The notes under the pieces are model-generated. The model saw only the letters and a list, made by a program, of their open reading frames with translations, was not told the origin of the DNA and did not search any database. The position numbers and the translations under genes were made by a program. A stretch of 64,000 nucleotides of DNA from Nannocystis pusilla (GTDB taxonomy: Bacteria > Myxococcota_A > Polyangia > Nannocystales > Nannocystaceae): assembly GCF_051105105.1 (NCBI RefSeq), contig NZ_CP185339.1; one strand, written 5' to 3'. Below, one piece after another: positions 905-63,645 of the stretch (its first letter is position 1; the number at the start of each line of letters is the position of its first letter).

Positions 905-1325
905 GAGCGCCGACCCGCGACACGCCCGCGTCCTGCGCGACCTCGCTACCTGTCCCATCAGACAGGCCCTCGACCTCGCCGCCTCGCGCCCGCGTCACGC
1001 GCCCCCGCGACCTGTCGCGTCAGACAGACTCTCGACCTCGCCGCCTCGCGCGCGCCCGCGACCTGTCCCGTCAGACAGGCTCCCGACCTCGCCGCCTCGC
1101 GTCCTGCGCGACCTCGCCAGCTGTCTTATCAGCCAGTCTCCGCTGCTTGTCGCCGCCGCCTCGCGTCCTGCGCGGCCCCGCGCTCTGTCTCGTCAGCGAG
1201 CTCTCGACCTCGCCGCCTCGCGCCCGCGCCCTGCGCGACCTGCCCCATCCACAGCGGGCATCTCAACAGGGCCGCGACGCCTGTCCGTTCGGACCTGTCC
1301 AATCGAGCCTGCCCCGAAGAGCCTG
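905..1325. repeat. about six degenerate tandem repeats of ~58-60 bp, each with a CCTGTC-N6-GACAGG palindrome
   Basis: The unit cgcgacctgtcccgtcagacaggctcccgacctcgccgcctcgcg recurs, with variants ctgtcccatcagacagg, ctgtcgcgtcagacaga and ctgtctcgtcagcgag. It sits between two convergent genes. Confidence 0.8.
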
Positions 1326-1326
1326 C

Positions 1327-1758
1327 TCAATCGGACATATTCGCGCCGCCGGGCGACTCCCCCGGCTCCTCGTTGATCTTCTTGCTCGCCTCTTCGTAGG
1401 CCTCGGCCTCCTCCTGCGCCTTCTTCTGCGACGCCAGGATGAAGTCGGGCTCGCCGAGGATCTTCTGCTTGGCCTTGAACTGGTAGGCGTAGAACATCTC
1501 GACGTTGTCGTAGATGGCGCCGCACATCTGGTCGCGCGCCTCGCCGACCAGCGGCTCCTTGGTCGCGGGGTCGACCAGGCGCGTGGCCAGCCACGCATCG
1601 ACGGCCGCGCAGTAGTCGGCGTCGCCGCCGGCGCACACCCCCTTGCTCAGGCGCTCGCACGGGCTGGCGCAGCCGCCGAGGCCGACCGCGAGCAGGAGCG
1701 ACATGGCCCCGAGGACAGGGCGCGACAACGAGCGAACGACAGAAGAAGCGAAGGACAT
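1327..1758 (-). CDS. hypothetical lipoprotein
   Basis: 143 aa. N-terminal signal plus lipobox (LLLAVGLGGCASP), then a charged C-terminal region. Confidence 0.6.
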   Translation of the reverse strand: MSFASSVVRSLSRPVLGAMSLLLAVGLGGCASPCERLSKGVCAGGDADYCAAVDAWLATRLVDPATKEPLVGEARDQMCGAIYDNVEMFYAYQFKAKQKILGEPDFILASQKKAQEEAEAYEEASKKINEEPGESPGGANMSD

Positions 1759-3892: not shown

Positions 3893-4804
3893 ATGACACG
3901 CGCGTCGCTGCTCCTCACCTCGCTCGCCCTCTTCGCTTGCAGCACCGGCGACGACCCGGGCGACAGCAGCAGCGACAGCGGCGTCACCACGGCCACCGCG
4001 GGCACCGCTCCGTCGACCACCGACGACTCGACCACGACGACCGGCACCTCGACCGAGCCGACGCCGACCACCAGCGACGGCACCACCACCGGCGACCCGA
4101 CGTCGACCTCGACCTCGACCACCACCGGCAGCACCACCGACGAGACCTCCGGCACGACCGGCCCGATCTGCGACCCCGGTCAGGCTGGCTGCGTGTGCGA
4201 CGGTGACGCCTGCGCCGACGGCCTCGAGTGCGTCGACGGCATCTGCGTGCCCGCGCTGGCCTGCGACGGCGACCTCGGCGAGCCCGACGACACCGAGGCG
4301 AACGCCCAGGACCTCGGCGAGATCACCGACGACGACGATGTCACCGTCATGGCCGACGGCGTGCTCAGCGGCGCCGGCAACGTCGACTGGTACACCTACC
4401 ACGGCCTCGACACCTTCGGCCACGTCGCCGAGCCGACCGTCAAGGTCACCTCGTCCGCCAGCGTGCGCGTGTGTCAGTTCATCGAGTGCGACCAGGGCGG
4501 CGCCGTCGGCACCGAAATCACCTGCCCCGAGGGTACGCAGACCGCCCTGTCCGGCGCCCTGCGCCCCGGCTGCTGCGGCGGCGCGACCTTCACCGTGTCC
4601 GACTTCAACTGCTCCGGCAGCTCCGACGACATCCAGGTCTACGTCCGCATCGACAAGCCGACCCAGGACGAGTGCGTCGAGTACGGCCTCGTCTCGCACA
4701 ATTCGAGCTTCACCCGGACGGCGCCGCGTCTGGCCTCCCGGACAGCCTGTCCCGAAGGCCAGCCTACTGCGGCGCCCCGTCGGGCACCTGCGGCGACACG
4801 GTGA
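3893..4804 (+). CDS. secreted Cys-rich lipoprotein with a Thr/Ser-rich linker
   Basis: MTRASLLLTSLALFACSTGDD gives the lipobox. A long T/S-rich linker leads into a Cys-rich domain (CDPGQAGCVCDGDACADGLECVDGICVP...). Its 3' end overlaps the convergent gene. Confidence 0.65.
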   Translation: MTRASLLLTSLALFACSTGDDPGDSSSDSGVTTATAGTAPSTTDDSTTTTGTSTEPTPTTSDGTTTGDPTSTSTSTTTGSTTDETSGTTGPICDPGQAGCVCDGDACADGLECVDGICVPALACDGDLGEPDDTEANAQDLGEITDDDDVTVMADGVLSGAGNVDWYTYHGLDTFGHVAEPTVKVTSSASVRVCQFIECDQGGAVGTEITCPEGTQTALSGALRPGCCGGATFTVSDFNCSGSSDDIQVYVRIDKPTQDECVEYGLVSHNSSFTRTAPRLASRTACPEGQPTAAPRRAPAATR

Positions 4805-5318
4805 TCGGCCGCCCGCGCAGCACCGCGAAGAACGCGATCAGCAGCGCGACTGTCCCGTAGGACAGCCCGAGCACCACCCCCGCGTCGACGATCCCGCGCC
4901 ACGGCTGGTCCAGCCCGCGGACCAGGCTGACGAGCGCGGTCACGCCGATCACCAGGCCCCACGACAGGATGAGCCGCTTGCGGTTGGCGAAGAACAGCCC
5001 CATGCAGAACAGCGGCGCCAGCGCCACGTGCAGCGGCCGCGGGTAGCGGGCCAGGTAGAACGCCCGCGCCACCGCCCGCGGCACGAACGCCTTCTGAAAG
5101 CCCTTGTAGCCCTCGGCGTACAGGTTGAACAGCGACCACCCGACGTACAGCGCCCACTGCAGCGGCGTCATCCCGGTCGTCAGCGGCTCGATCGCCAGCG
5201 GCGTCAGGCGGGCGAGCGCGCTCGCCAGCAGCGCGACCACCCCGAGCATGCCCCACCCCGCGATCAGCACGGCGGCGGGCGTACGGGGCGGGAACAGGCG
5301 GACCATCGCGCTCGTCAT
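4764..5318 (-). CDS. hypothetical integral membrane protein
   Basis: 184 aa with several hydrophobic helices (LIAGWGMLGVVALLASALA, LVIGVTALVSLV, LLIAFFAVL). Confidence 0.55.
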   Translation of the reverse strand: MTSAMVRLFPPRTPAAVLIAGWGMLGVVALLASALARLTPLAIEPLTTGMTPLQWALYVGWSLFNLYAEGYKGFQKAFVPRAVARAFYLARYPRPLHVALAPLFCMGLFFANRKRLILSWGLVIGVTALVSLVRGLDQPWRGIVDAGVVLGLSYGTVALLIAFFAVLRGRPITVSPQVPDGAPQ

Positions 5319-5479: not shown

Positions 5480-5720
5480 CTCACGCCCACGCACGATCGA
5501 CCTGTCCCTCGAGACAGCCGAATCCACCAGCCTCGACGCCTCCGAAATTCACCTGTCTCTCGGGACATGAGCGCGCGCGCGTCTCCGGCGCTTGCAGATT
5601 CATGGGTCGCACGAGATAGCCGTCGCGCCTGCCCCGAGTCCGCGAACTCACCTGTCTCTCGGGTCAGTCATCCGCGACTCCGCGCCTCCGAATCACCTGT
5701 CCTTCAAGACATCTCGCTCC
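5480..5720. repeat. cluster of REP-like elements (cacctgtc-N6-gacatg units)
   Basis: The unit ccgaa(a)t(t)cacctgtctctcgggacatg repeats three times, downstream of the GNAT gene's 3' end. Confidence 0.6.
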
Positions 5721-6259: not shown

Positions 6260-6964
6260 ATGCATCACTACGGCATCCTGGCGCTCGGCGTCGCCGGCCT
6301 CCTCCTCGCCGCGTGCGACCCCGGGACGGCGAGCAAGGCCGAGCCCGCCCCTGCTCCGAGCAAAGTCGCCGCGCCCCCGCCGGCCGAGACCAAACCGGCT
6401 CCGCCGCCCGCGCCCGCGCCTGTCGGCCCGGGCCAGCTCGACGCCGACCTCGTGCGCGCAGCCGGCACGGCTCAGGGGGTCGAGAAGATCAAGGTCGAGC
6501 TCGAGAAGGACGGCTCGGTGCGCTACCTGTCCGTCTATCACCAGGACGCCGCTGCCGTGCCCGAGCCGGTGCGCAAGCAGCTCGACGCGACCTATCCCGG
6601 CGCCAAGGTGCTGCGCTACGAGACCGAATACGTGGTCCCGCACGGCCGCCTGCACGAGGTCGAGGTCGAGACCGCCGACAAGCAGCAGTGCGAGCTCAGC
6701 GCGAGGGCCGACGGCGGCGTCGTCTACACCGAATGCCACATTGACGCCAAGGCGCTTCCCGAGCCCGTGCGCGCCGCGTTCGACAAGGCCCACCCCGGCG
6801 CAGCGATCAAGGAGGTCGAGAAGAAGACCCTGACCGGCGCCGGCGACGAGTACGAGATCGAGTTCGAGGCCGGCGGTCGCCTGCACGAGCTCTACTTCAA
6901 GCCCGACGGCGCCGTGATCCGCCACGAGCTGGTGATCCCCGCCGTCATCGAGGTCCCGGCCTAG
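6260..6964 (+). CDS. lipoprotein with tandem PepSY-like repeats
   Basis: Signal plus lipobox LLLAACDP. Two repeated modules (KIKVELEKDGSVRYLSVYH... and IKEVEKKTLTGAGDEYEIEFEAGGRLHELYF) are typical of PepSY-type domains. Confidence 0.6.
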   Translation: MHHYGILALGVAGLLLAACDPGTASKAEPAPAPSKVAAPPPAETKPAPPPAPAPVGPGQLDADLVRAAGTAQGVEKIKVELEKDGSVRYLSVYHQDAAAVPEPVRKQLDATYPGAKVLRYETEYVVPHGRLHEVEVETADKQQCELSARADGGVVYTECHIDAKALPEPVRAAFDKAHPGAAIKEVEKKTLTGAGDEYEIEFEAGGRLHELYFKPDGAVIRHELVIPAVIEVPA

Positions 6965-7163
6965 CCTTTCGGACATGCCCCAATAGACAGCTCTCGCGCC
7001 CGGCCGATCGCGCGTCCCCCGCACCGAAGTGGGGAGCTGTCCTTTGGACCAGCTCGATCGAGATCTGCGTCCGCCCGGCCGCCCGCTACCGGCGACCCAA
7101 GCGAGCGCGCCGCCGCGGGGTCTCCCCCGGGGCGGCGCACTGGCTCAATTTTCGACGCAGGAC

Positions 7164-11562: not shown

Positions 11563-11816
11563 GAGCAACGTGTCCCGAAGGACATCCTCCACCGAGACCG
11601 ATCGTGTCGGCCCCCATCACGGCCGCAGCCGTGCATGGGATCGGCGGAACCACCGAGCCGGCGTCCCGCCGCGAGGTCCAGTCGGCAATACGTGACGGCC
11701 AGCGCTCCGATCTTCGCTGGCCCCCGTCGATTGACCCCGAGCCTCACATGACCCGAAGGCCATGTCCCAAACTTTTCACCCGCAGCGCCGCAGCGGCGCG
11801 TCACCTGACCTGAAGG

Positions 11817-12104
11817 TCAGATCGCCATCAGCACCGGCACCGGGTGCATGTGGAACGCGCCCGGCACCGGGCACGCCCCCACCCGCGCCGCGCGGCGGGC
11901 CGTGAAGTGCGTGATGGTGGCGCGCAGCTCGTCGCCGGTCGGCTTGAGCAGCGTCGCCACGTACTGGTAGCCGATATCCTCGAAGTCGTCCTCCGGCTCT
12001 GCGTGGCACAGATAGCCGCGGCGATCGAGCCAGAGCGTGCGATGGCCGTGGTACTGGGCGAGTTCATCGACGAGACGGGCGACCTGCGGTTCGAGCGACA
12101 CCAT
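11817..12104 (-). CDS. small hypothetical protein
   Basis: About 95 aa (MVSLEPQVARLVDELAQYHGHRTLWLDRRGYLCHAEPEDDFEDIGYQYVATLLKPTGDELRATITHFTARR...). Protein-like, but no recognisable domain. Confidence 0.35.
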   Translation of the reverse strand: MVSLEPQVARLVDELAQYHGHRTLWLDRRGYLCHAEPEDDFEDIGYQYVATLLKPTGDELRATITHFTARRAARVGACPVPGAFHMHPVPVLMAI

Positions 12105-14188: not shown

Positions 14189-14346
14189 ACGTCGTCCTGA
14201 ACGAGCGCGGTCGGGCAGGTCCTCCGGGACATGTCCGACCGCACATGTTTTTAAAGTCAGCCCCTTGCGGGCGGCGCGCGCGCGATACGACCTTTTGACT
14301 TGTTCGTCCGCTCGACCCGGATCAGAACTCCGGCGGAGGAACCATC

Positions 14347-14769: not shown

Positions 14770-15110
14770 CATGGCCGGCGTAGCCGCCCGTCGGGCGACT
14801 CACTTGCGACCTGTTCGTGAGGACAGGTTTCTCGAGCGGGCCGGTCGCCGCCCGACTCGGACCCGATCTCGACGAGCTGGCCACACATGGCCTGCTCCTG
14901 AGGACAGGTTCTCGATCCGGCCGGTCGCTTGCGACCCGGACATGACCTCGACGAGCTGACCCAAGCGCCTGCTCTTGGGGACAGGTCCTCGCGCCGGCCA
15001 ATCACCGCCGACCCGGACCTGGCCCCGACGAGCTAACCTTATGGCCCGCTCCTGAGGACAGCTCCTCTCGGAGCAGCCGGCGACGCTGTCACCGGCCGCG
15101 ATCGGCATCA
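14770..15110. repeat. three to four tandem ~80-bp repeats containing CCTG-N9-CAGG palindromes
   Basis: The unit ctgaggacaggttctcgatccggccggtcgcttgcgacccggacatgacctcgacgagctgacccaagcgcctgctc repeats, with variants, between convergent 3' ends. Confidence 0.8.
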
Positions 15111-20645: not shown

Positions 20646-20769
20646 CCTGGCCCGCGAAGCGCCTGTCCCCAGAGACCGGTCCGGCCTCGGAGAGGCGCGA
20701 GGACGAAGCGTACAGCCGCAGCCGCAGCGGCCTCCCCGTTCGCGCCGGAGCGCCGCGATCGATCGCCTG

Positions 20770-21260: not shown

Positions 21261-21593
21261 GCTCGCGCGACGGCCGGCGCGCGAACGTCGGCGCGATCGT
21301 GGCCCGCGTCGGGCCGAGCACCAGCGCCCCGCTCTGGCCGCGGGCCTGGGGCCATGCGGCACGCGGCGCGCGAACAAGTGACAGTAGAAGCGCGCGACAT
21401 GACCCTACAGACATGTCCGAAGGGCTCCCACGAAATCGCATCAGGTCGGCCCGCCCGCGATTCACCGTAGTGGACGTGGTTGCGGTCGAATTCGCGGCGT
21501 CGACGTGGGCTCGGGCGAAAATGTGGGCCGTCCGCGTGCGGACTAAAAATGCACCGAGCGATCATGTTGCGACCGCTGTGCTCGCTTTTTCGG

Positions 21594-21628
21594 TTTGACA
21601 AGCACCATCGGCACGGACAAGAATGGAA
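21594..21628 (+). promoter_or_regulatory. candidate sigma70-type promoter (TTGACA-N17-AAGAAT)
   Basis: ggtTTGACAagcaccatcggcacggacAAGAATgg sits at the 5' edge of a lower-GC block. Confidence 0.35.
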
Positions 21629-21629
21629 G

Positions 21630-21826
21630 CGTCGGTCGGTCCTCCTCTCTGCACCCCGGTGCACGGCTGCCGGCCGCGATTCAAGCCCGAGCATCTCGGT
21701 CTTGATAAGCCGGCAGTCTTCGGTCCTTCGCGGCTGAAGGGTGTACCGTGGTGAGAGGAGGCCCGATTGAATTCGAGGTGTGTTGTTGAGGCGTGAGCGG
21801 GCACGGATGAGGACCGTGCCCGCTTT
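21630..21826 (+). ncRNA. candidate structured small RNA (~195 nt), family unknown
   Basis: A GC-poorer island in a 71% GC genome. A 9-bp long-range pairing (cctcctctc near the 5' end, gagaggagg near the 3' end) closes several local hairpins. An intrinsic terminator follows immediately. There is no plausible ORF and no downstream + strand gene. Confidence 0.4.
21788..21826 (+). terminator. Rho-independent terminator
   Basis: gagcgggcacggatgaggaccgtgcccgc followed by ttttttc. Confidence 0.7.
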
Positions 21827-21951
21827 TTTCATGCACGCGGTGGTTGTGCCTACATCGTGACCCGCGGTCCTGACCGGCTGTCACGTGGAGACTGCACCCT
21901 GCCCCGATCGCGGCGACCTGCACGGGCACAGGCCGCCGCGGGCGGGCCCGC

Positions 21952-25925: not shown

Positions 25926-26239
25926 GGGCGACTGATAGCGCAGTTCGCCGCGGCGCAGAAGTTCCTCGCGGGGCCTCTGCGGGGGCGTGCAGGCGCGTTC
26001 GCGGGTTAGCTGGCATGGGGCACGTCGCGGGGCATGGCGACGGCGAGCTCGCGGGAGGCGGTCTTCGACGCTCGCCATCGTTCGGCGAGGCGTCGGCGTT
26101 GGCGGCCTCTCCGAGGGTCGCGCGCGTTCGCGCGGGCGTGAAAGTGTCTATCCGGACATGTCTCGGCACTCGTGATAGCTGCGCCGCCCTCTCGCGCCTG
26201 ACCCGCCGGCTTTGAGAGTGCGTCTATTGAATAAGAGAG

Positions 26240-26271
26240 CACCTGTTCGCCCCGGTTCGACGAACAGGTGT
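26240..26271 (-). terminator. terminator-like hairpin downstream of the FHA gene
   Basis: cacctgttcg...cgaacaggtg forms a 10-bp stem. On the minus strand it is followed by ctctcttattc. Confidence 0.35.
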
Positions 26272-26385
26272 CTCGGCTTCAATCGTGTGCGTCGGCCACA
26301 CCGCCGCGAGAAAGCGCCGAAGGCCCGGCGCGTGCCGGGCCTCCTGGCCTTCGAGTCAGGCTGTCCTTCGGGACAGCCTCGCCGA

Positions 26386-35032: not shown

Positions 35033-35124
35033 GGCGCCAGGACAGGCTCGCGGAGGGCGTGGGGAGGCGCCCGGCCGAGCCGGTGCCGCGTGGGAGGTCG
35101 GGCGCGCCGAAGTGACCGGGCCGT

Positions 35125-35195
35125 CCGGGCATGTCCCGATCGACATGTCCTCTCTGACATGCCGATTGGAGCATGTCCCATGGGACATGACCGTG
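35125..35195. repeat. REP-like cluster between convergent genes
   Basis: gggcatgtcccgatcgacatgtcctctctgacatgccgattggagcatgtcccatgggacatgacc. Confidence 0.7.
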
Positions 35196-35215
35196 CAGCC
35201 AGCCCGCATCAAGTG

Positions 35216-36728
35216 TCAGTCGCGGCGGGCCAGCAGCGTCGCGTGCATGTCGCTGCCGTCGATGCTCTCGTCGAGCGGCTCGTCGATGTCGATGATCACG
35301 CTCTCGCCGCCCGAGCTCGTCGGCGGCGGGATCGGCGGGACGGAGCGCGGCGCGACCGAACCCGGCTGGGCCTCGACGGGGGCCGTCCGCGACCCGCGGC
35401 CCTCGACGCCGGCGAAGCGGGCCGCGAGGGTGCGCACGAACGCGCCCATCCACGGCTTCATCGAACGTCAGCTCCTCCTCGATCAGGTCGCTGGTGATCT
35501 TGGTGAGCGTGGCGTCCTCGACCACCAGCACGCTGGCGGTCCGGCGCGAGGCGGCGAAGATCAACGTCTCGCCGAACACGTCGCCCGGCCCGAGCCAGCG
35601 CAGCGACACGTGGTGCCCGGCCTCGAGCTTGTAGACCTCGAGCCGGCCGGCCAGCACGATGTAGGCCGCGTCGCCGATCTCACCCTCGCGGATCACGTGG
35701 TCGCCGGCGGCGAAGCGGACCGTCTGGAAGCTGCCGCTGCCGCGCAGCAGGCGGACGATGTCGGCCTGCAGCGCCGCCACGCTCGGATAGCGATCGTCGG
35801 GGTCGCGGCGCAGCGCCCGCGTCACGATGCGCACCAGCTCGCGCGGGAACGGCACCGCGACGTGGCTATCGGGCGACGCGAACTTCGCCTCGCGCGCGAG
35901 GATCAGCGCGTCCATCGCCGTGCGCGCCTGGTACGGCGGCTTCCCGACCATCATCTCGTAGAGCAGCGCGCCCATCGAGAACACGTCGGCGCGCTCGTCG
36001 AGCGGATGGCTGTTGGCCTGCTCCGGCGACATGTACGACGGCGTGCCGAACACCAGCCCGTCGGTCTCCGACGGCGGCAGCGGCGGCAGGGCGTCGCGGA
36101 CCCAATGCGCCTCGTCTTCGCTGGACCGGAGCGGCAGGATCTGGGCCCCGCCCCAGTCCATCAAATAGACCTGGCCGTAGGCGCCGACCATCACGTTGGC
36201 CGACTTGATGTCGCAGTGGATCACCCCGCGGCTGTGGGCGAACGACAGCGCGTCGCACACCTTGACGAAGATCTCGAGGCGGTGGAACAGCCGCTCGTGG
36301 TCGGTCGCCGGCTCGCCGCCGATCAGCGCCTTCAGGCTCTGGCCCTCGACCAGCTTCATCGTGAAGTAGAGCTGGCCCTGCTCGTCGCGCCCGAGCTCGT
36401 GGATCGGCACGATGTTGGGGTGGTCGAGCTGACCGGTCACCTGGGCCTCGCGCAAGAACCCGTGCACGAGCATCAGGTGGTCGTAGGTCTTGGCGTGCAT
36501 GACCTTGGCGGCCATCCGCCGCTGCAGCACCTCGTCGAACGCGAGCCGCACCGAGCCCATCCCGCCGCGCGCCAGCTCGTCGCCGAACGACAGCCGCGGC
36601 ACTTGGTCCGGCAGCGCCGCGCGGATGAGGGCCTCGAGCCGCTCCTCATAGGAGAGCGGGGAGTCGCGGTCGAACAGCCGCTCGAGCGCGGCGCTGGGGG
36701 ACGAGCCTCCGGGGCGGCGACCTGGCAT
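35216..36728 (-). CDS. Ser/Thr protein kinase fused to a cyclic-nucleotide-binding (CAP-family effector) domain; C-terminal frame switch near 35460
   Basis: Kinase motifs VIHCDIKSANVMV, DWGGA, GTPSYMSPEQ. The cNMP domain reads FAAGDHVIREGEIGDAAYIVLAGRLEVYK...GPGDVFGE. The Arg/Pro-rich tail of ORF 34974..36878 is implausible, while the small ORF 35216..35461 supplies a protein-like C-terminus. Confidence 0.8.
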
Positions 36729-36780: not shown

Positions 36781-37935
36781 ATGGACCTGCGCACCGCCCT
36801 CGTCACGCTCCGCTTGCGCCACCCGTTCGGCCTGTCGCGCGGCACCGTGAGCGAACTGCCGAGCTTGCTCGTGCGCATCGACCCGGGCGACCCGGACGGT
36901 GCCGCAGCGGATGGCCCCGATCGCCGCGGCCTCGGCGAGGCCGCGCCCGTGCGCTACCTCGGTCAGTCGGCGATCGCCGCCGCGCCTCTGGCCACCGCGA
37001 TCGCGGCCGAGCTGTCCCCCGAGATCCTCGTCGACCCGCGCGCGATCGCGGCCGCCGGTCCGCGCATGCGCGAGCTCGCCCCCGACCACTCCGCGGCCCG
37101 CTGCGCCGTCGACACCGCCCTGTGGGACGCGGCCGCGCGCGCCCGCGGCCGCCCGCTGGCCGAGCTGCTGGCCGACCCGGACGTGCTCGATCGGGCAGGT
37201 CTCGATCGCCATGTCCTTTCGGCCACCTCGGGGGCCACGGTCACCTCTTACACGATCGCGCTCGACGAGCTCCCGGCGATGGCGGCCCGCGCGGCCGCGG
37301 CCGCGCACCTCCCGGTGCTCAAGATCAAGCTCGGCAAAAATCGCGATTTCGACCGCGCGGCCGTGCGTGCGATCGCCGCCGCCGCCCCGAACGCCCGCCT
37401 GCGGGTCGACGCCAACGGCGGCTGGACCCCGGACGACGTGCGCGCTCTGCTCCCGCTGCTGGTCGACCTCGGGGTCGAGCAGCTCGAGCAGCCGCTGCCT
37501 GCGGGTCGGCCCGACCTTCTCGCGGCGCTCGCGCGCGACTGTCCCCTGCCGATCTACGCCGACGAGGACGTACAGGGGCCGGACGACGTGGCGGCGCTGC
37601 GGGGTCGGGTCGCGGGGATCAACGTCAAGCTGATGAAGTGCGGCGGGATCTCGCCGGCCCTGGCGACGATCGCCGCGGCCCGGGACAGCGGCCTGCGGGT
37701 GCTCGTCGGCTGCATGATCGAGACCCGCGTCGGGCTCGCCGCGGGCGCCGCCCTGGCCCGCCTCGCCGACGAGGCCGACCTCGACGCCCACATGCTCACG
37801 CGGGCCGACCCGATGCCGCCGGGGAGCCAAGAGCGGCTCGCGCCCGACCTCCCGCGGCTTTGCGGCCCCGGCCTCGGCGTCCCGCCGGGGGCGTTGCCCG
37901 CGGACGGCGACCCGGGGCCCGGGCGCGTGGCATAA
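36781..37935 (+). CDS. enolase-superfamily enzyme, mandelate racemase/muconate lactonizing family (dipeptide epimerase/OSBS-like)
   Basis: KIKLG, VDANGGW, LEQP, ADE and KLMKCGG are the catalytic K-x-K, D, E, D, K positions. Confidence 0.8.
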   Translation: MDLRTALVTLRLRHPFGLSRGTVSELPSLLVRIDPGDPDGAAADGPDRRGLGEAAPVRYLGQSAIAAAPLATAIAAELSPEILVDPRAIAAAGPRMRELAPDHSAARCAVDTALWDAAARARGRPLAELLADPDVLDRAGLDRHVLSATSGATVTSYTIALDELPAMAARAAAAAHLPVLKIKLGKNRDFDRAAVRAIAAAAPNARLRVDANGGWTPDDVRALLPLLVDLGVEQLEQPLPAGRPDLLAALARDCPLPIYADEDVQGPDDVAALRGRVAGINVKLMKCGGISPALATIAAARDSGLRVLVGCMIETRVGLAAGAALARLADEADLDAHMLTRADPMPPGSQERLAPDLPRLCGPGLGVPPGALPADGDPGPGRVA

Positions 37936-37948: not shown

Positions 37949-40900
37949 TTGAAGCCCGACGAGCCCCAGGCCCGCGCCTCGCTGCCGGTGACGCCACCTG
38001 TCCCTGAGGACATCCTTCCGCGTCCGCTCGGGCGCTACGAGCTGGTGCGTCGGGTCGGCTCCGGCAGCATGGGCGTCGTCTATGCCGCGCTCGATCGCGA
38101 CAGCGGCCGCACCATCGCGCTCAAGACCCTGCACCAGCTCGACCCGGGCGCGCTGTTCCGCCTCAAGAACGAGTTCCGCAGCGCCGCCGGCCTGTCGCAC
38201 CCGAACCTCGTCAGCCTCCACCAGCTCGTCTCGCACGACGACGAGTGGTTCATCACCATGGAGTTCGTCGACGGCGTCAGCTTCGTCGACCATGTCCGTC
38301 AGGGCATGTCCGAAAAGCCAGGCGCCGCGCCGCCGCCCGAGCGCCTGCGCCCCGCCCTGCTGCAGCTGGCCGCCGGCGTCAGCGCCCTGCACGCCGCCGG
38401 CAAGCTGCACCGCGACCTCAAGTCGTCGAACGTGCTGGTCACCGCCGACGGCCGCGTCGTCATCCTCGACTTCGGCCTCGCCGCCGACAACGTCGCCGAG
38501 GGCGGCGAGGACGGGCTGCTCGGCACGCCGGCGACGATGGCGCCGGAGCAGGCCGCCGGCAACCCGGCCTCGCCCGCGAGCGACTGGTACGCGATCGGCG
38601 TCATGCTCTACGAGGCGCTCACCGGCCGTCTGCCGTTCACCGGCCCGCCGCTCGCCATCCTCCACGCCAAGCAGCACGAGGACCCGGCCCCGCCGCAGGC
38701 GCTCGTGCCCAACGTCGATCCCGAGCTGGCGACCCTGTGCGTGGGCCTGCTGCAGCGCGACCCGGCCGCGCGGCTCGGCGGCGCCGACATCCGCGAGGCC
38801 CTCGGCGAGGCCCCGCTCGGCCCGACCGAGTCCGGCGCGCGCTTCGTCGGCCGCGACGACCTGCTGTCGGCGATGCGCGACGCCTTCCAGCTCGCGCTCG
38901 CCGGCTCGCCGGTGTGCGTGTACGTCCGCGGCCGCTCCGGCATCGGCAAGACCGCGCTCATCGATCGCTTCATCGCCGAGCTGCGCCGCAACGACCGCGC
39001 CTTCGTCCTCCAGGGCCGCTGCTACGAGCGCGAGAGCGTGCCGTACAAGGCCTTCGACAGCGTCCTCGACGCGCTCGCGCAGCACCTCCGCCACCTCCCG
39101 CAGGAGGAGGCCGCGGCCCTGCTGCCGCGCGAGATCCACGAGCTCACGCGGCTGTTCCCCGTCCTCGCGCGCGCCCCCGTGGTCGCCGATCTGCCGCAGC
39201 GCAACTTCGTCGCCCCCGACCCGCAAGAGGCGCGGCGTCGGGCCTTCCGCGGGCTCAAGGAGCTGCTGGCGCGGATCGCCGATCGCCGCCCGCTGGTGCT
39301 GCGGATCGCCGACCTGCAGTGGGGCGACGAGGACAGCGCGCGCCTGCTCGCCGAGCTGCTGTCGCCGCCCGATCCGCCGGCGATGCTCTTCATCGGTTCG
39401 TACCGCATCGACGAGGACGACGCGCCGATGCTCCGCGAGCTGCGGCGGCTCGGCGCGCGGCCCGAGCTCAAGGCGCTGGTGCGCGACCTGCTGGTCGAGC
39501 CGCTCTCGCCCGATCAGGCCGAGGAGCTCGCGCTCGCCCGGCTCGGCCGCGACAGCGACAGCGCCCGCGCCGAGGCGCGCCGGATCGCCGCCGAGTCGGG
39601 CGGCAACCCGCTGTTCGTCGAGGAGCTCGCGCGCCACATCGCCGGTCACCGCGGCGCCGCGCCGGCCGAGGTCTCGCTCGACGCGGTCGTGCGCACCCGC
39701 CTCGCCAACCTGCGCGCCGCGGGTCGCAGCCTGCTCGAGATCGTCGCCGTCGCCGGGCGACCGATCCCGCCGAGCCTCGCGTTCACGGCCTCGGGCGTCA
39801 CCGATCGCTCGGTCCTCGGCGAGCTGCAGGCGCAGCACCTGCTGCGCACGCTGGCCTCGCGCAGCGGCGACACCGTCGAGTGCTACCACGACCGGATCCG
39901 CGACACCGTGCTGGCGCAGCTCGGCGGCGACCGCCTGGCGCAGCTGCACCGCACCCTCGCCGACGCCCTCGCGCAGTCGGCCGACGACCCCGAGCTGCTG
40001 GCGCACCACCTCCACGCCGCCGGCGCCTTGAAGGAGGCGCACGCCGCCGCCGTCGCCGCCGCCGAGCGGGCCGCCGCCGCGCTCGCGTTCTACCGCGCCG
40101 CTCAACTGTACGGCCGCGCCCTCGCGTGGGCGCCCGACCTGCCGGACGACGAGCGCCGCGCCCTCCTGCGCCGCCGCGCCGACGCCCTCGCGCTGGCGGG
40201 TCGCAGCGCCGAGGCGGCCCCGGTCTACGCCAGCGCCGCCGAGGGCGCCTCGGCCGCCGAATCACTCGAGCTGCGCCGCCGCGCCGGCGAGCAGTTCCTC
40301 GTCAGCGGCAACATCGACCAGGGCGTGCGGATGCTGCGCCCCGCGCTCGTCGAGGTCGACCTCGGCTACCCGGCCACCCCCGGCCGCGCCAACATGTCGA
40401 TCATCACCCGCTCGACGCAGCTCAGCCTGCGCGGGCTCGGCTTCGCCGCGGTGCGCGAGGAGCAGGTCCCGCCGGCCGACCTGCTGCGCCTCGACGTGTG
40501 CCTGTCGGCGGCCGTCGGCCTCGCCTTCGTCGATCCGATCCGGGGCTACAGCTTCTACCAGCGCGGCCTCCTCCTGGCCCTTCAGACAGGTGAGCCGCAG
40601 CGGATCGCCCGGGCGCTCGCCGGCGTCGGCGCCATGATCATGAGCCGCGGCACCGCCAACGCCGTCGGCCGCGGCACCACCCTGCTCAAGGAGGCGCGCC
40701 GCCTCGCCGAACAGATCTCGGAGCCGCGCCTCATCGGCCTGTGCGAGATCGTCGACGCCATCGCCGCCGTCTCGCTCGGCCGCTGGCGCCGCGCGCTCGA
40801 GCACTGCGAGCAGGGCGCCCAGATCCTGCTCGACCGCTGCGTCGGCGTCGGCTGGGAGCTCGACCTCGCCCGCATGAGCACGATGCGCGGCCTGTTCATG

Positions 40901-43134: not shown

Positions 43135-43195
43135 AGACATGTCGCCTGCGACATGTCCATTACGCCAGGCCTTGATGGACATGGTCTAAAGGTCA
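43135..43195. repeat. REP-like cluster
   Basis: gagacatgtcgcctgcgacatgtccattacgccaggccttgatggacatggtc. Confidence 0.65.
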
Positions 43196-43327: not shown

Positions 43328-43570
43328 TCACCCGTCGAACAGCTCGAGCAGCGTGCGCAGCCCCGGCGACCCAAGCGCCTGCGGCTTCTCGGCCAGCGCG
43401 CGGCGGATCTCGAGGTGCGCCGCCGGCAGGATCGACTGCAGCGGCTCGAGCGCCTTCGCGTCGCCGCTCTGGGCCGCCGCCACCGTCGCCCGCACCTGCT
43501 CGCGCCCGGGCCCTGCGAGCCGCTGGCCAACGTCCCACGCGGTCACGACAGCACCTGCTCCGAGGGACAT
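43328..43570 (-). CDS. small hypothetical protein (uncertain)
   Basis: About 80 aa from MSLGAGAVVTAWDVGQRLAGP... More protein-like than the opposite-strand Arg-rich ORF. The start ATG is embedded in a GACATGTCC element. Confidence 0.3.
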   Translation of the reverse strand: MSLGAGAVVTAWDVGQRLAGPGREQVRATVAAAQSGDAKALEPLQSILPAAHLEIRRALAEKPQALGSPGLRTLLELFDG

Positions 43571-43658
43571 GTCCCCGAGTTCATCGTGGCGCAGCTTCGC
43601 GGGCGGCCCGGCGCGGGCATACCGACGGTGGAGCAGGCCCATGCCCGCGAGGATAGCC

Positions 43659-47316: not shown

Positions 47317-47324
47317 TCTGACGC

Positions 47325-47420
47325 AGGGGACATGTCCCCGGAGCCAGCATGGACTCGGCTGGCCCTGAGGACATGCTCATCGGGCCAGGCAGAGGTCGCC
47401 TGGCTCGCAGGACATGTCAG
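47325..47420. repeat. REP-like cluster between convergent genes
   Basis: gggacatgtcccc...gaggacatgctcatcg...caggacatgtcagc. Confidence 0.65.
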
Positions 47421-48422: not shown

Positions 48423-48824
48423 GCTCCCAGGCTCGCACTCTCGGCCGCGGCTCGGCAAGCGGCGAAAACGCCAAGAAGTGCTCACTTCTCGCCACCCGCG
48501 TCCGGCGAGGCACCGGCCGGCACATGTCCTCAAGGACATCTGATCCCATCGGAGAAATATAGTCGGGCGCCGGCTCAGCGAGCCCGTAGACCTCGCTCGC
48601 GCACGTCCGCACCCCGCGAACCGTCCCTGTATCACTCGCTACAGCACCCGCCCCCGAGCCCTCGGCGAGGATCGCCAGGCGCGAGACGAAGGTCACCGAC
48701 GGCGCGCCGCGAACGACCGCTGCGTCGTACGACGGTCCTGCCAGCGGACCGAGCCGGCGCCGACCCTCGCGCGCCCGCGCCCGGCGCCCTCGCGTTTCGC
48801 CGCTCGCGGGCTTAGCCTTGGCGC

Positions 48825-49944: not shown

Positions 49945-50027
49945 CCGGCTGTCCGCGAGGACAGCCGCACCTGTTCGCTCGGACAGCCTGCGCCGCGCTA
50001 CGCCGCGCCTGCCCTTTCGGACAGCCT
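49945..50027. repeat. REP-like cluster (GGCTGTCC-N4-GGACAGCC)
   Basis: ggctgtccgcgaggacagcc...ctcggacagcc...cctttcggacagcc. Confidence 0.7.
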
Positions 50028-51010: not shown

Positions 51011-52276
51011 ATGTCCGGACGCGACTCCCACTCCGAAGACCCGCGCGGGCCCCGGCCGCTGCACCCGCACGTCGGGCTCGCCGAGCCGCCCGACGACCCC
51101 GGCCTCGAGCTGCGCGCCGACCTCGCCGATCCCGGCCTCTCGGGGCTCTTGCGCCGCGGGGTCAAGGCCGCCATCGCGCGCTGGGCGGTGCTGCGGCGGC
51201 CCGCCGCCGAGTGGCCGCGCCCGCAAGACGAAGCCCGCCACGCCTGGGACGGCCGGCCGCACTTCGCCGAGGACTTCGTGTTCGTCGGCGTGCAGCCCGA
51301 GCTCGCCGTGCTCGCGCGCCTCGAGTGGTTGCCGGGCCGCGACGCGCACCGCGTCTGGCTCACCCTCTTCACGCCCACCGCGATCTACTGCCTCCCCGGC
51401 GGCCAGGCCCTGCTGCGCGGCGACGGCGAGCGCGGCTGGTCGGTCGGCGGCCTCAGCTTCGATTGCGTGGAGCCGCTGCGCACCTGGACCCTGCGCTACC
51501 GCGGCGCCTTGCATGTCCACGACCCCCGCGGCCGGCCGCTGCGCCCCGCCGGCGACGCCCCCGCCGAGTCGATCGAGGCCCGCCTCGACCTCACCTTCCT
51601 CGCCGGCCTCTTGCCGTTCGTCCCCGGCACCGACGACGACCCCGACCTGCTCGCGCGCCAGCTCGGCGCCGCCGCCTGGGACACCCGCCTGCTCCGCGCC
51701 GTGCGCCGCCACCCGCTCCGCGGCTACGTCCAGGCCGGCGATCTTCACGGCACGATCACCCTCGGCCGCGACCTGCGGGCCTTCGGCGGCGCCGCCCTGC
51801 GCGTCCACAATTGGGGCGTGCGCGACTGGGGCGCCAGCGACGCCGCCATGCAGTGCTTCGCCACTCTCGGCCCGTTGCGGACGTATGTGCACACCGCCCG
51901 CTTCCCGTGGGTGAGCCTGTCCGGCGGCTTCGTCCAGCGGCCTGGTGGCGTCGTCCCGATCCGCGACCTCGGAGTCACGCAAGAGCGCCGCCCCGGCCGC
52001 GCGCCCGCTCGCACCGGCCTGGCCGTCGAGGCCCCCGGCGGCCCGCTCGCCCTCGAGGCCGAGACCGTCGCCGAGCTCCCGCTCGACATGGACGGCCGCG
52101 GTCACCTCGACATCGCCCTCGTGCGCGTCCACGCCGGCGGCGAACGCCCGCCGCCCGCCCGCGCCGAGGGCCCCCGCCTCGTCGGCCCCGCGCGCCCGCA
52201 CGAGGAGCCGCACGGCTGGGGCCTCTGCTTCACCCAGCGCCGCCTGCTCCCGCGCCCCACGCCGCGCACCGGCTGA
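51011..52276 (+). CDS. hypothetical protein
   Basis: 421-aa ORF with consistent GC3 bias and no recognisable domain. Confidence 0.45.
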   Translation: MSGRDSHSEDPRGPRPLHPHVGLAEPPDDPGLELRADLADPGLSGLLRRGVKAAIARWAVLRRPAAEWPRPQDEARHAWDGRPHFAEDFVFVGVQPELAVLARLEWLPGRDAHRVWLTLFTPTAIYCLPGGQALLRGDGERGWSVGGLSFDCVEPLRTWTLRYRGALHVHDPRGRPLRPAGDAPAESIEARLDLTFLAGLLPFVPGTDDDPDLLARQLGAAAWDTRLLRAVRRHPLRGYVQAGDLHGTITLGRDLRAFGGAALRVHNWGVRDWGASDAAMQCFATLGPLRTYVHTARFPWVSLSGGFVQRPGGVVPIRDLGVTQERRPGRAPARTGLAVEAPGGPLALEAETVAELPLDMDGRGHLDIALVRVHAGGERPPPARAEGPRLVGPARPHEEPHGWGLCFTQRRLLPRPTPRTG

Positions 52277-52287
52277 CCTGCCCGCCG

Positions 52288-52372
52288 GGGCATGTCCGCG
52301 GGCACATGTCTGGGCAGACATGTCTCCACGAGCATGCTTCTGTGGGCATGTCCAGAAGTACATGTCCTCTCC
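52288..52372. repeat. REP-like cluster (five RCATGTCY units)
   Basis: gggcatgtccgcgggcacatgtctgggcagacatgtctccacgagcatgcttctgtgggcatgtccagaagtacatgtcctc. Confidence 0.7.
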
Positions 52373-52485
52373 GCCAGCCTCCCGGGCGCGACCTGCTCCG
52401 CCCGCGGGCGACACGGCCGCCTTCCGGGCCGCGTCGGCGCCTCGCGCCCGCCACGGCACCGCGCCCGCAGGGCTCGTCGCCCCGA

Positions 52486-60235: not shown

Positions 60236-60540
60236 ATCCACGCTCGCTGGACCGCGCGAGCGCCCGAGCGCCTCGTCGTTCTTGCTCACTCCGCGACCAC
60301 GCGCGCATCGCCCTCGTCGCCACTCGCCCGAGCGCCCGAGCGCCTCGTCGTTCTTGCTCGCTCTGCGAGCACGCGCGCATCGCCCTCGTCGCCACTCGCG
60401 CGAGCGCCCGAACGCCTCGTCGTTCTTGCTCACTCCGCGACCACGCGCGCATCGCCCTCGTCGCCACTCGCCCGAGCGCCCGAGCGCCTCGTCGTTCTTG
60501 CTCACGCCGCGACCACGCGCGCATCGCCCTCGTCGCCGTT
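60236..60540. repeat. four near-identical 72-bp tandem repeats
   Basis: Unit gagcgcccgagcgcctcgtcgttcttgctcactccgcgaccacgcgcgcatcgccctcgtcgccactcgcc. Copies start at ~60266, 60338, 60410 and 60482. Confidence 0.85.
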
Positions 60541-60965
60541 CATCGAGCTCCTGCTCGCGGCTCGCCCGCTCGAGCGCTCGTCCTCCGCGCGAACCAGCGG
60601 ACCGCATCACCCGACTTGCAGACCTCATGTACGGCCCGTCACGCCGCGCCCGAAGCCGATCCCCGCGCCACCCCCGATCCATGGCGAGCGCCACAACAGG
60701 TCCCGCACGTCGCGCTCGCATCGGACACAAGTCCGGAGCGCTCATGCGCCGCGCTCGCCTCGGACACAAGTCCGGCGAGCCCATGCGCTGCGATCGCGAT
60801 CCATCTCGCGGACAACAGTCCGTCGCGCACCCCCCGGGTCCTTGCAGCTGCGTCATCCGGACATCAGTCCGCGAACCGACCGCGACATCGGTCCGCGATC
60901 GGACCCCACGCCCTCGCGCCGGCACGCATCGGGCCGCGGACGCAGGCACCTGCTACTGTGAGCGC

Positions 60966-61817
60966 ATGTTCGACGCGCAGCTCCGCGGCCCCGGCGTCAC
61001 CGCCGCCCGGCTCGTCTCTGTCCTCGCGTTCCTGTCCTTCGGGGCATGTCAGCGTGTCCCCTACGACGACGACGACAGCGCCGGCAACCAGGGCGACGAC
61101 GAGAGCGACACGGACACCGAAGGCGGGGGCGACACGCAGCCGACCACGGGAGCGCCCGAGCCGCCGCCGGACCTCAACCCGGTCTACGACTGTGAACCGT
61201 CCGGAACTCCCGCATGTCCCGAAGGACAGAAGTGCACCGCGGTCAGCGAGGGCGGCCTGCAGAACCACTTCAAGTGCGTGCCCGACGACAGCGCGATCCT
61301 GCCGCTCGAGCCGTGCGTGCCTGCGCCCGAGAGCGGACAGGACGGGTGCGGCGCCGGCACCGTGTGCCTCTCGCCGATCCAGGACGATCCGACCTCCGGC
61401 CTGTGTTTCCCGCTGTGCCGCAACAACGTCGACTGCGACCCCGGCCTGTGCGTCACCAGTCCCTTCAGCGGCACGACCTACTGCGCGGACAGCTGTGATC
61501 CTCTCGTGGCCGTCTGTCCGCCCAACCTCGGCTGTCGCCAGGGCACCGATCGATTCGTCTGCGAGATGCTGCTCAACGTCGACATGGGCACCGAGGGCGC
61601 CAATTGCTCGGAGTTCAACGGCCGCGGCTGCGCCCCCACGTACGTGTGCATGCCGGGGGCGCTGGTGCCGAATTGCGGCTCTTCCAGCTGCTGCACCTCG
61701 ACCTGCGCCACGAACGAGGGCGACGCGCAGTGCGCGTCGCCCTCCCTCTGTGAACCGCTGTTTCCGAGCCCCGCGCCCGGGTTCGAGAGCATCGGGGCCT
61801 GCTTCGTGCCGGCTTAG
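60966..61817 (+). CDS. Cys-rich repeat lipoprotein (myxobacterial Cys-rich repeat type)
   Basis: Signal plus lipobox LAFLSFGAC, an acidic linker, then ~30 Cys in repeated C-x-n-C-x-n-C modules (CPEGQKCTAV..., CGAGTVCLSP..., CRNNVDCDPGLC...). Confidence 0.7.
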   Translation: MFDAQLRGPGVTAARLVSVLAFLSFGACQRVPYDDDDSAGNQGDDESDTDTEGGGDTQPTTGAPEPPPDLNPVYDCEPSGTPACPEGQKCTAVSEGGLQNHFKCVPDDSAILPLEPCVPAPESGQDGCGAGTVCLSPIQDDPTSGLCFPLCRNNVDCDPGLCVTSPFSGTTYCADSCDPLVAVCPPNLGCRQGTDRFVCEMLLNVDMGTEGANCSEFNGRGCAPTYVCMPGALVPNCGSSSCCTSTCATNEGDAQCASPSLCEPLFPSPAPGFESIGACFVPA

Positions 61818-62706: not shown

Positions 62707-63573
62707 GTGGCCACTTTCGACCCCGAGCTCCGACTCGTCCTCTCGCTCGCCCGCGAGGCCGGCGCCATCGCCCTGGCCTATCAGACAGGTGGTGCCAACG
62801 TCATGCAGGCCCAGGACAAGCCTGACGACGCTGGCCCGGTCACTCGTGCGGACACCGAGATCAACGCGCGCCTGGTCGCTGCGCTGCGCGCGGCCTTCCC
62901 CGGCGACGCGGTCGTCGCCGAGGAGTCCGCCGACGACGCCGCCGCAGCCGCCAACGTCTCGCGCTGCTGGTACGTCGACCCGATCGACGGCACCGCCGAG
63001 TACGCCCGCGGCGAGAGCTGCTGGGCGATCCAGATCGGCCTCTGCATCGGCGGCGAACCCGTCCTCGGCGTCGTCTACGAGGCCGGCGCGGCCCGCCTCT
63101 CGTGGGGCGTCTGCACGTCCGATCGGCGCGAGGCGTTCGTCGTCGACGACAGCGGCGCGGCCACCCCGCTGCATGCCAGCGGTCGCTCGCTCGCCGAGCT
63201 GCGCCTCGTCAGCAGCCTGAGTCACGCCTCCCCGAAGACCCTCGAGGTCATGCAGGTCCTCGGCATCCCGCCCGAGCGCAACCTCCGGCTCGGCTCCGTC
63301 GGCGTGAAGGTGGGCACCATCGCCCGCGGCGAGGCCGACCTATATGTCCACCCGCGCAGCGGCACCAAGCTGTGGGACACCTGCGCGCCGTGGGCCCTGT
63401 TGCGCGCGGTCGGCGGCGTCATCACCGACCTGTGGGGCCATCCACTGATCTACGACCCGCGCCGGCTCGGCCACGACAATGGTTTGGTCGCCTCGCACGG
63501 CGCGCACCACGACGACATCCTCGCGGCCATCCGTCCGCTCGTCGACGCCTGGTACCGCTCGCCGCACGCATGA
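62707..63573 (+). CDS. inositol monophosphatase / 3'(2'),5'-bisphosphate nucleotidase (CysQ-like) family protein
   Basis: AEESADD...WYVDPIDGTAEYARG...WDTCAPWALL are the IMPase motifs. Confidence 0.85.
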   Translation: MATFDPELRLVLSLAREAGAIALAYQTGGANVMQAQDKPDDAGPVTRADTEINARLVAALRAAFPGDAVVAEESADDAAAAANVSRCWYVDPIDGTAEYARGESCWAIQIGLCIGGEPVLGVVYEAGAARLSWGVCTSDRREAFVVDDSGAATPLHASGRSLAELRLVSSLSHASPKTLEVMQVLGIPPERNLRLGSVGVKVGTIARGEADLYVHPRSGTKLWDTCAPWALLRAVGGVITDLWGHPLIYDPRRLGHDNGLVASHGAHHDDILAAIRPLVDAWYRSPHA

Positions 63574-63577
63574 CCTT

Positions 63578-63645
63578 GCGGACAGGTGTCCTGGCACAGG
63601 TTCTATCGGACATGTGTCCTCGAACCTGTCCGTGCGGACATGCCC
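63578..63645. repeat. REP-like cluster between convergent genes
   Basis: cggacaggtgtcctggcacaggttctatcggacatgtgtcctcgaacctgtccgtgcggacatgccc. Confidence 0.7.

Follow-up and report, generated by a model that had tools for sequence, protein, structure and literature searches.

What are the short palindromes that gather at the ends of genes in Nannocystis pusilla, and what could keep them there? A first-pass annotation of a 64,000-nucleotide stretch of its genome (contig NZ_CP185339.1, assembly GCF_051105105.1), made from the sequence alone, described a family of inverted repeats built from GGACA and TGTCC at about 15 loci, among them a cluster at 52288-52372, and likened it to repetitive extragenic palindromic (REP) elements and bacterial interspersed mosaic elements (BIMEs). 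Here, we follow up that description in the whole stretch, which we call the window, and in related genomes. The unit of the family is a symmetric 14-bp palindrome, TGTCC-N4-GGACA, with a variable centre, which occurs singly or in arrays and is almost confined to transcript-end DNA, at nearly every convergent junction. We give an even chance to the interpretation that it is a genus-specific miniature palindromic repeat family, REP/BIME-like in kind, that marks 3' boundaries. Nannocystis genomes, at 11-13 Mb, are among the largest in bacteria and are mined for natural products.

The 14-bp unit and its place at the ends of genes

Copies of GGACA on both strands of the window number 154, compared to 105.8±10.6 in the shuffled window, and on one strand the spacing of the pentamer peaks at 14, 28, 42 and 56 bp. 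All 15 loci listed in the first-pass annotation hold GGACA/TGTCC pentamers, and the family exceeds shuffled sequence, but the arrangement that had been proposed, GGACA-N0-8-TGTCC, gives way to TGTCC-N4-GGACA as the dominant form. Nine exact copies are present, in which GGACA starts 9 nt after the start of TGTCC; rarer arrangements are GGACATGTCC (four copies), an N2 form (two) and an N3 form (one). With its flanks, the consensus reads [C/G][A/C]-TGTCC-YNNR-GGACA-[T/G][G/C]. The ccgaagg/ccttcgg sequences first taken for flanks are really the N4 centre (cgaa or ttcg) together with the arms, and three of the 15 loci (905-1325, 5480-5720 and 14770-15110) proved to be tandem repeats of about 51-77 bp with one unit per copy.

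Matches to TGTCCNNNNGGACA with up to two mismatches number 91, compared to 25.3±5.1 in dinucleotide shuffles of the window, and units with at most one mismatch number 37, compared to 1.1±1.1 under a Markov-1 model, an excess of about 30-fold. None of 100 shuffles matched the observed pentamer or unit counts. The positions 14 bp to either side of good units are themselves partial units, with two to four mismatches, in 144 of 499 cases, compared to 15 of 1007 out-of-phase control 14-mers. Because the units often abut head to tail and so create GGACA|TGTCC junctions, ACATGTCC is the 8-mer with the strongest enrichment in spacers (13 spacer copies compared to 4 in coding sequence). Some matches to GGACAT are accounted for by ATG-TCC start codons, for example at 24111.

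The cluster that raised the question has the following layout:

52279..52376, no strand assigned: focal array of seven in-phase 14-bp slots between convergent genes; slots 1 to 7 are, in order, TGCCCgccgGGGCA, TGTCCgcggGCACA, TGTCTgggcAGACA, TGTCTccacGAGCA, TGCTTctgtGGGCA, TGTCCagaaGTACA and TGTCCtctcCGCCA

The focal locus is made up of small palindromes in a direct, phased series, not of a single inverted repeat. It begins 3 nt past the TGA stop of gene 51011-52276 (+), and its folding energy is -50.7 kcal/mol (z = -2.1 against shuffles). Homologs of the hypothetical gene beside it come from Nannocystis and Nannocystaceae genomes and metagenomes. For comparison we used the loci of a double-unit scan, described below, and three relatives of the window at the focal flanking gene, L066, L068 and L070, whose flanking proteins are 89%, 71% and 61% identical to those of the window, respectively. 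The ortholog of the array in L066 also has seven slots in the same phase; 53 of 70 arm positions are identical between the two, compared to 10 of 28 positions in the N4 centres (p=4e-4).

Gene calls were made with a codon-usage model trained on the window and were partly checked with Pfam and with calls on orthologous contigs. In the window, units with at most one mismatch have a density of 5.44 per kb in convergent spacers, 1.05 in co-directional spacers, 0.41 in divergent spacers and 0.29 in coding sequence (binomial p=4e-10), and the 13-fold difference between convergent and divergent spacers is found at similar composition. The Nannocystis loci of the scan, with the ascertained sites excluded, give 3.68 convergent, 1.85 co-directional, 0.61 divergent and 0.23 coding units per kb. 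Units are found at 11 of 12 convergent junctions, a count in which two gene-call overlaps were corrected by hand, and in one of 12 divergent spacers. At 4731-4864, where two convergent open reading frame (ORF) calls overlap, the units belong to non-coding 3' DNA; the kinase ORF 34974-36728 (-) drops its third-position G+C signal at about 35490, and the array at 35118-35201 thus falls outside coding sequence. In co-directional spacers, 55 of 79 units are closer to the upstream stop, compared to 24 that are not (p=6e-4; median distances 75 and 146 nt). Arrays often begin 0-20 nt past a stop codon, and the stop codon itself can start the array, as with TGACCttgcGGACA at 63571 and, in the focal array's ortholog in L066, with TGACC. 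The 3'-proximal, convergent-biased placement described in the first-pass annotation is thus borne out.

Anatomy, turnover and taxonomic range

Statistics on the anatomy of the unit were pooled over 202 non-coding units. T1, G2 and C4 and their partners are near-invariant, and T3/A12 and C5/G10 vary most. The centres are of more than 40 kinds, the commonest being CGAG/CTCG, TGAA/TTCA, CCGA/TCGG, CGAA/TTCG and CGCA/TGCG. Position 6 is C or T in 71% of units and position 9 is G or A in 71%, although these two positions are unable to pair within a 4-nt loop. UNCG-type centres (TTCG, TCCG, TGCG and their complements) with a closing C-G pair account for about 29 of the 202, a several-fold enrichment. 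The two bases that flank each arm are mostly CA, CC, GC and their complements, in a symmetric profile, and isolated units are often longer palindromes with complementary flanks, for example ggcTGTCCttcgGGACAgcc and gagcTGTCCgatcGGACAgctc.

The two arms change in concert. Among units whose eight remaining arm positions match the consensus, TGTCT...AGACA double variants (T5/A10) occur 10 times, compared to about 3 expected from single-side variants, and TGCCC...GGGCA double variants (C3/G12) occur 7 times, compared to about 1.3; symmetric double variants are not in excess in coding DNA. Both mismatches lie at paired positions in 37 non-coding two-mismatch units, 23 of them Watson-Crick compared to about 12 expected. 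These two excesses indicate that the arms co-vary so as to remain complementary. A Watson-Crick excess was not seen when all in-phase degenerate neighbours were pooled, a set diluted by non-units. Convergent spacers fold better than their dinucleotide shuffles on both strands (mean z -2.8, compared to -0.13 for divergent spacers).

Of 48 neighbouring pairs of perfect units, 6 have the same N4 in both members, compared to a permutation mean of 0.64 (P<2e-4). Identical adjacent centres are the signature of tandem duplication of a single 14-bp unit, and arrays therefore grow at least partly by this route. Arrays are also gained, lost and rearranged between close relatives: the spacer after the arginase-family gene holds three units in the window and four, in a different order, in L066, and units in the spacer after the fadL gene are present in the window but nearly absent from L066 and L068. 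In comparisons of genomes with 89-96% identity over the aligned segments, large indels terminate at units and some centres are fully replaced between identical flanks. Across six genome pairs, shared units show 1.63 differences per 4-nt centre, compared to 0.92 in other gap-free non-coding 4-mers, and centres with at least three differences are more frequent than among controls (13 of 46 compared to 195 of 2163; p=2e-4). A fast centre, and not unusually slow arms, is the clear signal in this comparison, to which non-orthologous alignment may contribute.

To delimit the range of the family, one genome from each of 185,579 species was scanned with two abutting perfect units as the query (20 specified bases), for which about one match is expected by chance. 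The scan returned 65 loci: 48 in Nannocystis, 14 in Mesorhizobium and three singletons. The Nannocystis loci belong to N. bainbridge (16), N. punicea (6), N. pusilla (6), sp. RBIL2 (3), N. exedens (2) and N. radixulma (1), with the other 14 in four metagenome-assembled Nannocystis genomes, and their centres differ from copy to copy. Variable-centre arrays are thus essentially restricted to Nannocystis, as the proposal of a lineage-specific family had it, and the density of units drops with phylogenetic distance, from 0.58 per kb in the window to 0.47 in L066, 0.14 in L068 and 0.05 in L070. A scan of viral contigs for the double unit gave no matches.

The Mesorhizobium matches are a different element, a fixed, perfect palindrome of 40-44 bp, ccccctcTGTCCtgccGGACATGTCCggcaGGACAgaggggg, with constant complementary centres. 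It is a REP-like element that shares the double core by happenstance. Its loci are L003, L006, L008, L012, L017, L036, L039, L042, L051, L052, L056, L058, L063 and L065; L042 holds two copies within 70 bp, and strain ES1-1 carries the element at two loci. Isolated double cores were seen in a Desulfobulbaceae metagenome-assembled genome (L010, 105-138, a perfect 34-bp palindrome) and in an Acidobacteria metagenome-assembled genome (L055, 5130-5172, three units with the third offset by 1 nt).

The first-pass annotation could assign the repeat to no described family, and neither could we. No Rfam 15 family matched the window at the gathering threshold, and in an E-value scan of the focal locus the sole match, mir-4891, scored 20.6 bits against a threshold of 100, which is chance. 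Literature searches on the motif, on Nannocystis repeats and on REPs and REP-associated tyrosine transposases (RAYTs) in myxobacteria found nothing relevant and no paper on the repeat; GGACATGTCC is known there only as a p53 half-site, a coincidence.

Possible origins and roles of the unit

The proposal of a lineage-specific REP class holds in part. Units are extragenic, 3'-proximal, convergent-biased and restricted to one lineage, but the structural definition does not apply to a 14-bp symmetric unit that lacks the GTAG/CGTC tag. Being so short, symmetric, untagged and without a long consensus, the family is filed here as REP/BIME-like in kind and not as a demonstrated REP. Fixed arms, symmetric covariation and strand equivalence are what is expected of a palindrome at the DNA level, and because the two strands behave equivalently, the element is probably maintained as DNA. 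Maintenance could occur through a copying or homogenising process, or through a factor that reads both arm sequence and stem-loop shape, as RAYT reads REPs, and units would persist where insertion spares promoters. Transcription from either side would then place stem-loops on both RNAs. These probably serve as bidirectional transcript-end hairpins that, in a genome lacking hairpin-plus-U terminators, stop read-through and obstruct 3' exonucleases, a role suggested by the placement of the units, their folding and the lack of canonical terminators.

Several observations weigh against this interpretation. The unit departs from REPs in structure (14 bp compared to 20-40 bp, symmetric, without a GTAG/CGTC tag), and, local duplication aside, copies at separate loci share only their arms. 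K-mer counts revealed no abundant 12-16-mer of the family, so a search of the kind used for REPINs, by most frequent 16-mer, would overlook it. We know of no dispersal mechanism for a 14-bp unit, and tblastn with E. coli RayT gave no match in the 611 kb of sequence examined in local searches, a result that is uninformative at the genome level. Arm conservation, for units picked in one species, is 0.73 compared to 0.77 in other non-coding DNA, on which ground stronger purifying selection on the arms was rejected. The position-specific information in the arms (strong at T1, G2 and C4, weaker at T3 and C5) suits read-out by a protein, and the unpairable Y6/R9 preference fits protein read-out at least equally well. 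Adjacent perfect units have reverse-complementary centres in one of 48 cases, which is chance; arrays are therefore not tuned to fold as a single long hairpin, and a REPIN-like long-hairpin design is ruled out. The functional hairpin step is weakened by the missing G·U bias: in co-directional spacers, single changes that preserve G·U pairing number 7 in sense and 13 in antisense, beside 15 changes of other kinds, and loop orientation is also unbiased (three TTCG compared to three CGAA). Hairpin-plus-T-run terminators number 6 in 20 kb, compared to 4.9±3.2 expected, with none at arrays, and the unit itself, with its 5-bp stem and no T-run, falls outside the definition of an intrinsic terminator. 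The suggestion that units act in RNA-level termination or mRNA stabilisation consequently receives no specific support from wobble bias or U-tracts.

The main rival explanation is a DNA-binding protein, which could account for some of these features; the first-pass annotation had likewise offered, as its alternative, a site array for a binding factor at 3' ends, and this alternative stays a serious competitor. It is possible, though we consider it rather unlikely, that the arrays are cooperative double-stranded DNA sites for a Nannocystis-specific dimeric protein, with 5-bp half-sites, a 4-bp spacer and one dimer per unit, so that abutting units build a filament; at convergent junctions the complex could serve as a roadblock that terminates transcription, as an insulator or as a landing pad for topoisomerase. 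The 5-N4-5 arrangement has the geometry of classic helix-turn-helix dimer operators, such as the FNR operator, TTGAT-N4-ATCAA. Conservation of the arm sequence beyond what pairing demands, with position-specific information across thousands of copies and across species, speaks for a protein, as do the Y6/R9 preference in an unpairable loop, the strict 14-bp phasing, the equivalence of the strands without RNA wobble bias, the non-complementary adjacent centres and the occupation of 11 of 12 convergent junctions. REPs and BIMEs of E. coli, moreover, bind gyrase and IHF, and REP-binding proteins are noted in the literature (PMC2817692). However, independent read-out of two half-sites predicts no compensatory arm variants, and symmetric ones are over-represented 3-5-fold; the arms are no better conserved than other non-coding DNA and arrays turn over rapidly; duplicates with identical N4 account for the phasing mechanically; and a candidate protein was not identified. 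In its fullest form, with protein arrays acting as a sequence-specific bidirectional roadblock, insulator or supercoil-management site at nearly every convergent boundary, the proposal is doubtful. With such arrays, this high-GC bacterial lineage would have an equivalent of the Reb1/TTF-I roadblock terminators of eukaryotes in place of hairpin-plus-U terminators.

Alternatively, the units may be hairpins at RNA 3' ends, either 'I-shaped' factor-independent terminators or exonuclease blocks, that evolved in place and share a stem only through an RNA-binding factor or a preference for stability. The position of units 3' of stop codons, the folding of spacers beyond their shuffles on both strands, the enrichment of C-G-closed UNCG-type centres, the extension of isolated units to GC-rich stems of 6-9 bp (for example ggcTGTCCttcgGGACAgcc) and the absence of U-tract terminators are consistent with such hairpins. 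We nevertheless judge this improbable: a hairpin function needs no single stem sequence throughout a genome, 5-bp stems are weak, zero-linker 14-bp phasing is unexpected for independent hairpins, and neither G·U-preserving sense changes nor an orientation of the loops is favoured. Mobile DNA could also leave such units, as scars or minimal end-pairs of a DDE transposon with 5'-TGTCC...GGACA-3' termini, the N4 being repair or target-derived filler and the clusters arising by repeated insertion and excision. Termini that run TG...CA are typical of IS3, IS21, Mu and Tn7-type ends, N4 is hypervariable and at times wholly replaced between close relatives, and indel boundaries fall on units. Yet 0.6 Mb of sequence contained neither a full-length element nor a repeat of at least 1 kb shared by non-orthologous loci, the exact 5+4+5 length, strict phasing and symmetric arm covariation would go unexplained, and to our knowledge bacterial DDE excision scars of this kind are not established, which makes transposon-end scars very unlikely. 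An artefact of chance or composition, with AT-containing words pushed into the non-coding DNA of a 72% G+C genome, is unlikely to the point of being negligible. Spacers are generally enriched in AT-containing k-mers and some GGACAT matches are start codons, but the 30-fold excess over Markov-1, the counts that none of 100 shuffles reached, the phasing and the 13-fold convergent/divergent difference are not compositional and already refute it. By comparison at the level of the sequence pattern, a CsrA-type GGA-loop, a restriction/methylation site, a DNA uptake sequence (DUS), a parS-like site and the MrpC box (GTGTC-N8-GACAC) were rejected on spacing, placement or over-representation.

One 14-bp symmetric word marks almost all convergent boundaries in DNA without canonical terminators. 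If the units act as terminators, insulators or topoisomerase sites, they would provide a simple sequence rule by which operon ends could be annotated and expression constructs designed for these organisms, and a tractable case of how a genome-wide punctuation signal arises. The reading as protein arrays, if true, would be a highly interesting finding. If the units are purely selfish, they would be the smallest REP-like repeat known to us and a test case for the spread of very short palindromes without an obvious transposase, and their fast 4-nt centres and 14-bp slippage would make useful strain-typing markers.

Other loci in the window and comparison with known systems

The window has a G+C content of 72% and encodes, among others, a FadL-type outer-membrane protein, Ser/Thr kinases with AAA_16 and cyclic nucleotide (cNMP) domains, an FHA protein, CarB, MetG and an M4 peptidase; a tRNA scan of its 64 kb found no tRNA genes. 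Besides the focal array, it contains the following units, to which no strand is assigned:

923..1337: composite tandem repeat of about 51-60 bp in a convergent spacer, one extended-arm unit gaccTGTCCcgtcAGACAgg per copy, followed by two abutting units at 1282-1309
4731..4864: three units, at 4731, 4748 and 4851 (the last the exact copy TGTCCcgtaGGACA), at convergent ORFs whose called ends overlap
5503..5711: four dispersed caccTGTCYnnnnRGACA units in a 438-bp co-directional spacer
6962..7051: degenerate units in a convergent spacer, an abutting pair at 6962-6989 just past the stop at 6964 and a third unit at 7038
11571..11819: convergent spacer with the exact copy TGTCCcgaaGGACA at 11571 and, at 11749 and 11806 respectively, the symmetric variants TGACCcgaaGGCCA and TGACCtgaaGGTCA
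14218..14245: abutting pair of units joined by a GGACATGTCC junction, 30 nt past the stop codon of gene 13382-14188 (+)
14810..15061: 77-bp tandem repeat, 3.2 copies, in a convergent spacer; one unit per copy, its left arm degenerate (TGYTCnnnnGGACAgg)
26145..26375: two isolated units, one of them the 8-bp-stem ggcTGTCCttcgGGACAgcc, 11 nt past the stop of the FHA gene (-)
35118..35201: five in-phase or near-phase units, one exact (TGTCCcatgGGACA), in DNA devoid of coding periodicity that separates cyclase gene 33806-35032 (+) from the kinase gene's end (-)
37999..38012: exact unit TGTCCctgaGGACA, bounded by gene 36781-37935 (+) and the next gene's kinase domain
38293-38320: abutting pair of units in coding sequence, within the kinase domain
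43140..43167: two abutting degenerate units, 20 nt past the PurT stop
43556..43583: abutting pair of degenerate units that meet in a GGACATGTCC junction, close to the 3' end of a major facilitator superfamily (MFS) gene (-)
47319..47414: units 3' of the FadL-type gene in a convergent spacer; a GGACATGTCC junction lies at 47328, and units also occupy 47360-47387 and 47401-47414
48525..48538: exact unit TGTCCtcaaGGACA, the sole unit with at most one mismatch in a divergent (promoter-side) spacer
49950..50023: three units, TGTCCgcgaGGACA, TGTTCgctcGGACA and TGCCCtttcGGACA, each flanked by gc..gcc, in the 86-bp spacer between an arginase-family gene (+) and a TPR gene (-)
61033-61046 and 61215-61228: units in the coding sequence of a lipoprotein gene, in the lipobox region and the body
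63571..63640: unit cluster in a convergent spacer; the first unit, TGACCttgcGGACA, overlaps the TGA stop of gene 62707-63573 (+), and others include GGACAggTGTCC, GGACAtgTGTCC and the exact TGTCCgtgcGGACA

The unit TGTCCctgaGGACA lies upstream of the Pfam kinase match and is thus probably non-coding. The units at 38293, 61033 and 61215, one of which is an exact copy, stand inside genuine coding sequence, so the family is not strictly extragenic.

Other repeats and irregularities were noted in passing. A 72-bp tandem repeat of about 4.3 near-identical copies (...cgagcgcctcgtcgttcttgctcac...cacgcgcgcatcgccctcgtcgcc...) at 60240-60545, unrelated to the 14-bp unit, occupies the 847-bp spacer upstream of the lipoprotein gene 60966-61817. 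Five small hairpins with the opposite arm order (cGGACAcaaGTCCg, cGGACAacaGTCCg, cGGACAtcaGTCCg and similar) stand 39-49 bp apart at 60715-60890, 5' of gene 60966, and could represent either a variant of the family or a distinct repeat. The uncalled region 20364-21951 holds a 71-bp tandem repeat (20983-21186, 2.2-2.9 copies) that contains cgcgaaacgaggacgcc, and a (GCC)n run of about 64 copies lies at 7197-7388 inside the weakly supported ORF 7164-7688 (-). In the kinase and cNMP-binding ORF 34974-36728 (-), the third-position signal lost at about 35490 is picked up again in a different frame (ORF 35216-35467), pointing to a frameshift, pseudogene or sequencing error close to the 3' end.

Several known systems share individual properties of the unit. 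Like the cyanobacterial palindrome HIP1 (GCGATCGC), it is very short, lineage-specific and massively over-represented, but HIP1 is uninterrupted and common inside genes, whereas the unit is interrupted, extragenic and 3'-biased. The Neisseria DUS and the Haemophilus uptake signal sequence are likewise short specific words that occur as inverted pairs just after genes, and in them, too, sequence-specific and hairpin properties coincide. The arm described here, however, is only 5 nt, is rare in coding DNA and is not a dispersed word in a single orientation, and nothing ties it to DNA uptake. The MetJ met-box and FNR/CRP-type operators resemble the unit in its symmetric 14-bp 5-N4-5 form, and abutting repeats suggest cooperative dimers, but those are promoter sites at a few loci, whereas the units stand at 3' ends and, by extrapolation, at thousands of loci. 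For a CRP/FNR-type operator the geometry fits and the placement fails (0.41 units per kb in divergent compared to 5.44 in convergent spacers; one of 12 divergent spacers). Miniature inverted-repeat transposable elements (MITEs) measure 50-500 bp and carry terminal inverted repeats as well as target-site duplications; the unit measures 14 bp, a longer shared body was not found, and the identical N4 across 6 of 48 junctions is explained equally well by tandem duplication as by target-site duplication.

The closest likenesses are to the REP world. A REPIN is a REP doublet that forms a long hairpin and is the proposed unit of RAYT mobilisation. Paired palindromic modules side by side recall this arrangement, although adjacent centres in Nannocystis are complementary only at chance (1 of 48) and those of the Mesorhizobium element ccccctcTGTCCtgccGGACATGTCCggcaGGACAgaggggg are complementary. 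BIMEs alternate REPs with linker motifs, whereas the arrays here run head to tail in strict 14-bp phase with zero linker; spacing is regular, linkers are absent, and the symmetry of the unit leaves BIME-style alternating orientation undefined. Single REPs are 20-40 bp long with a GTAG/CGTC head, compared to a symmetric 14 bp with 5-bp arms, a free 4-nt centre, no such head and no family-wide consensus beyond the 5+5 arms and weak flanks of ±2 positions, and the excess of G·T in REP stems, taken as a sign of RNA function, is not shared by the unit. REPs typically flank the gene of their cognate RAYT, a Y1 HUH transposase. As in E. coli, Pseudomonas and Stenotrophomonas, the Nannocystis repeats are high-copy, extragenic palindromes, single or clustered 3' of genes, and they belong to a lineage-specific family with rapid turnover between relatives. 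Surveys of REPs describe the same placement 3' of ORFs, between convergent and unidirectional genes (PMC3733652).

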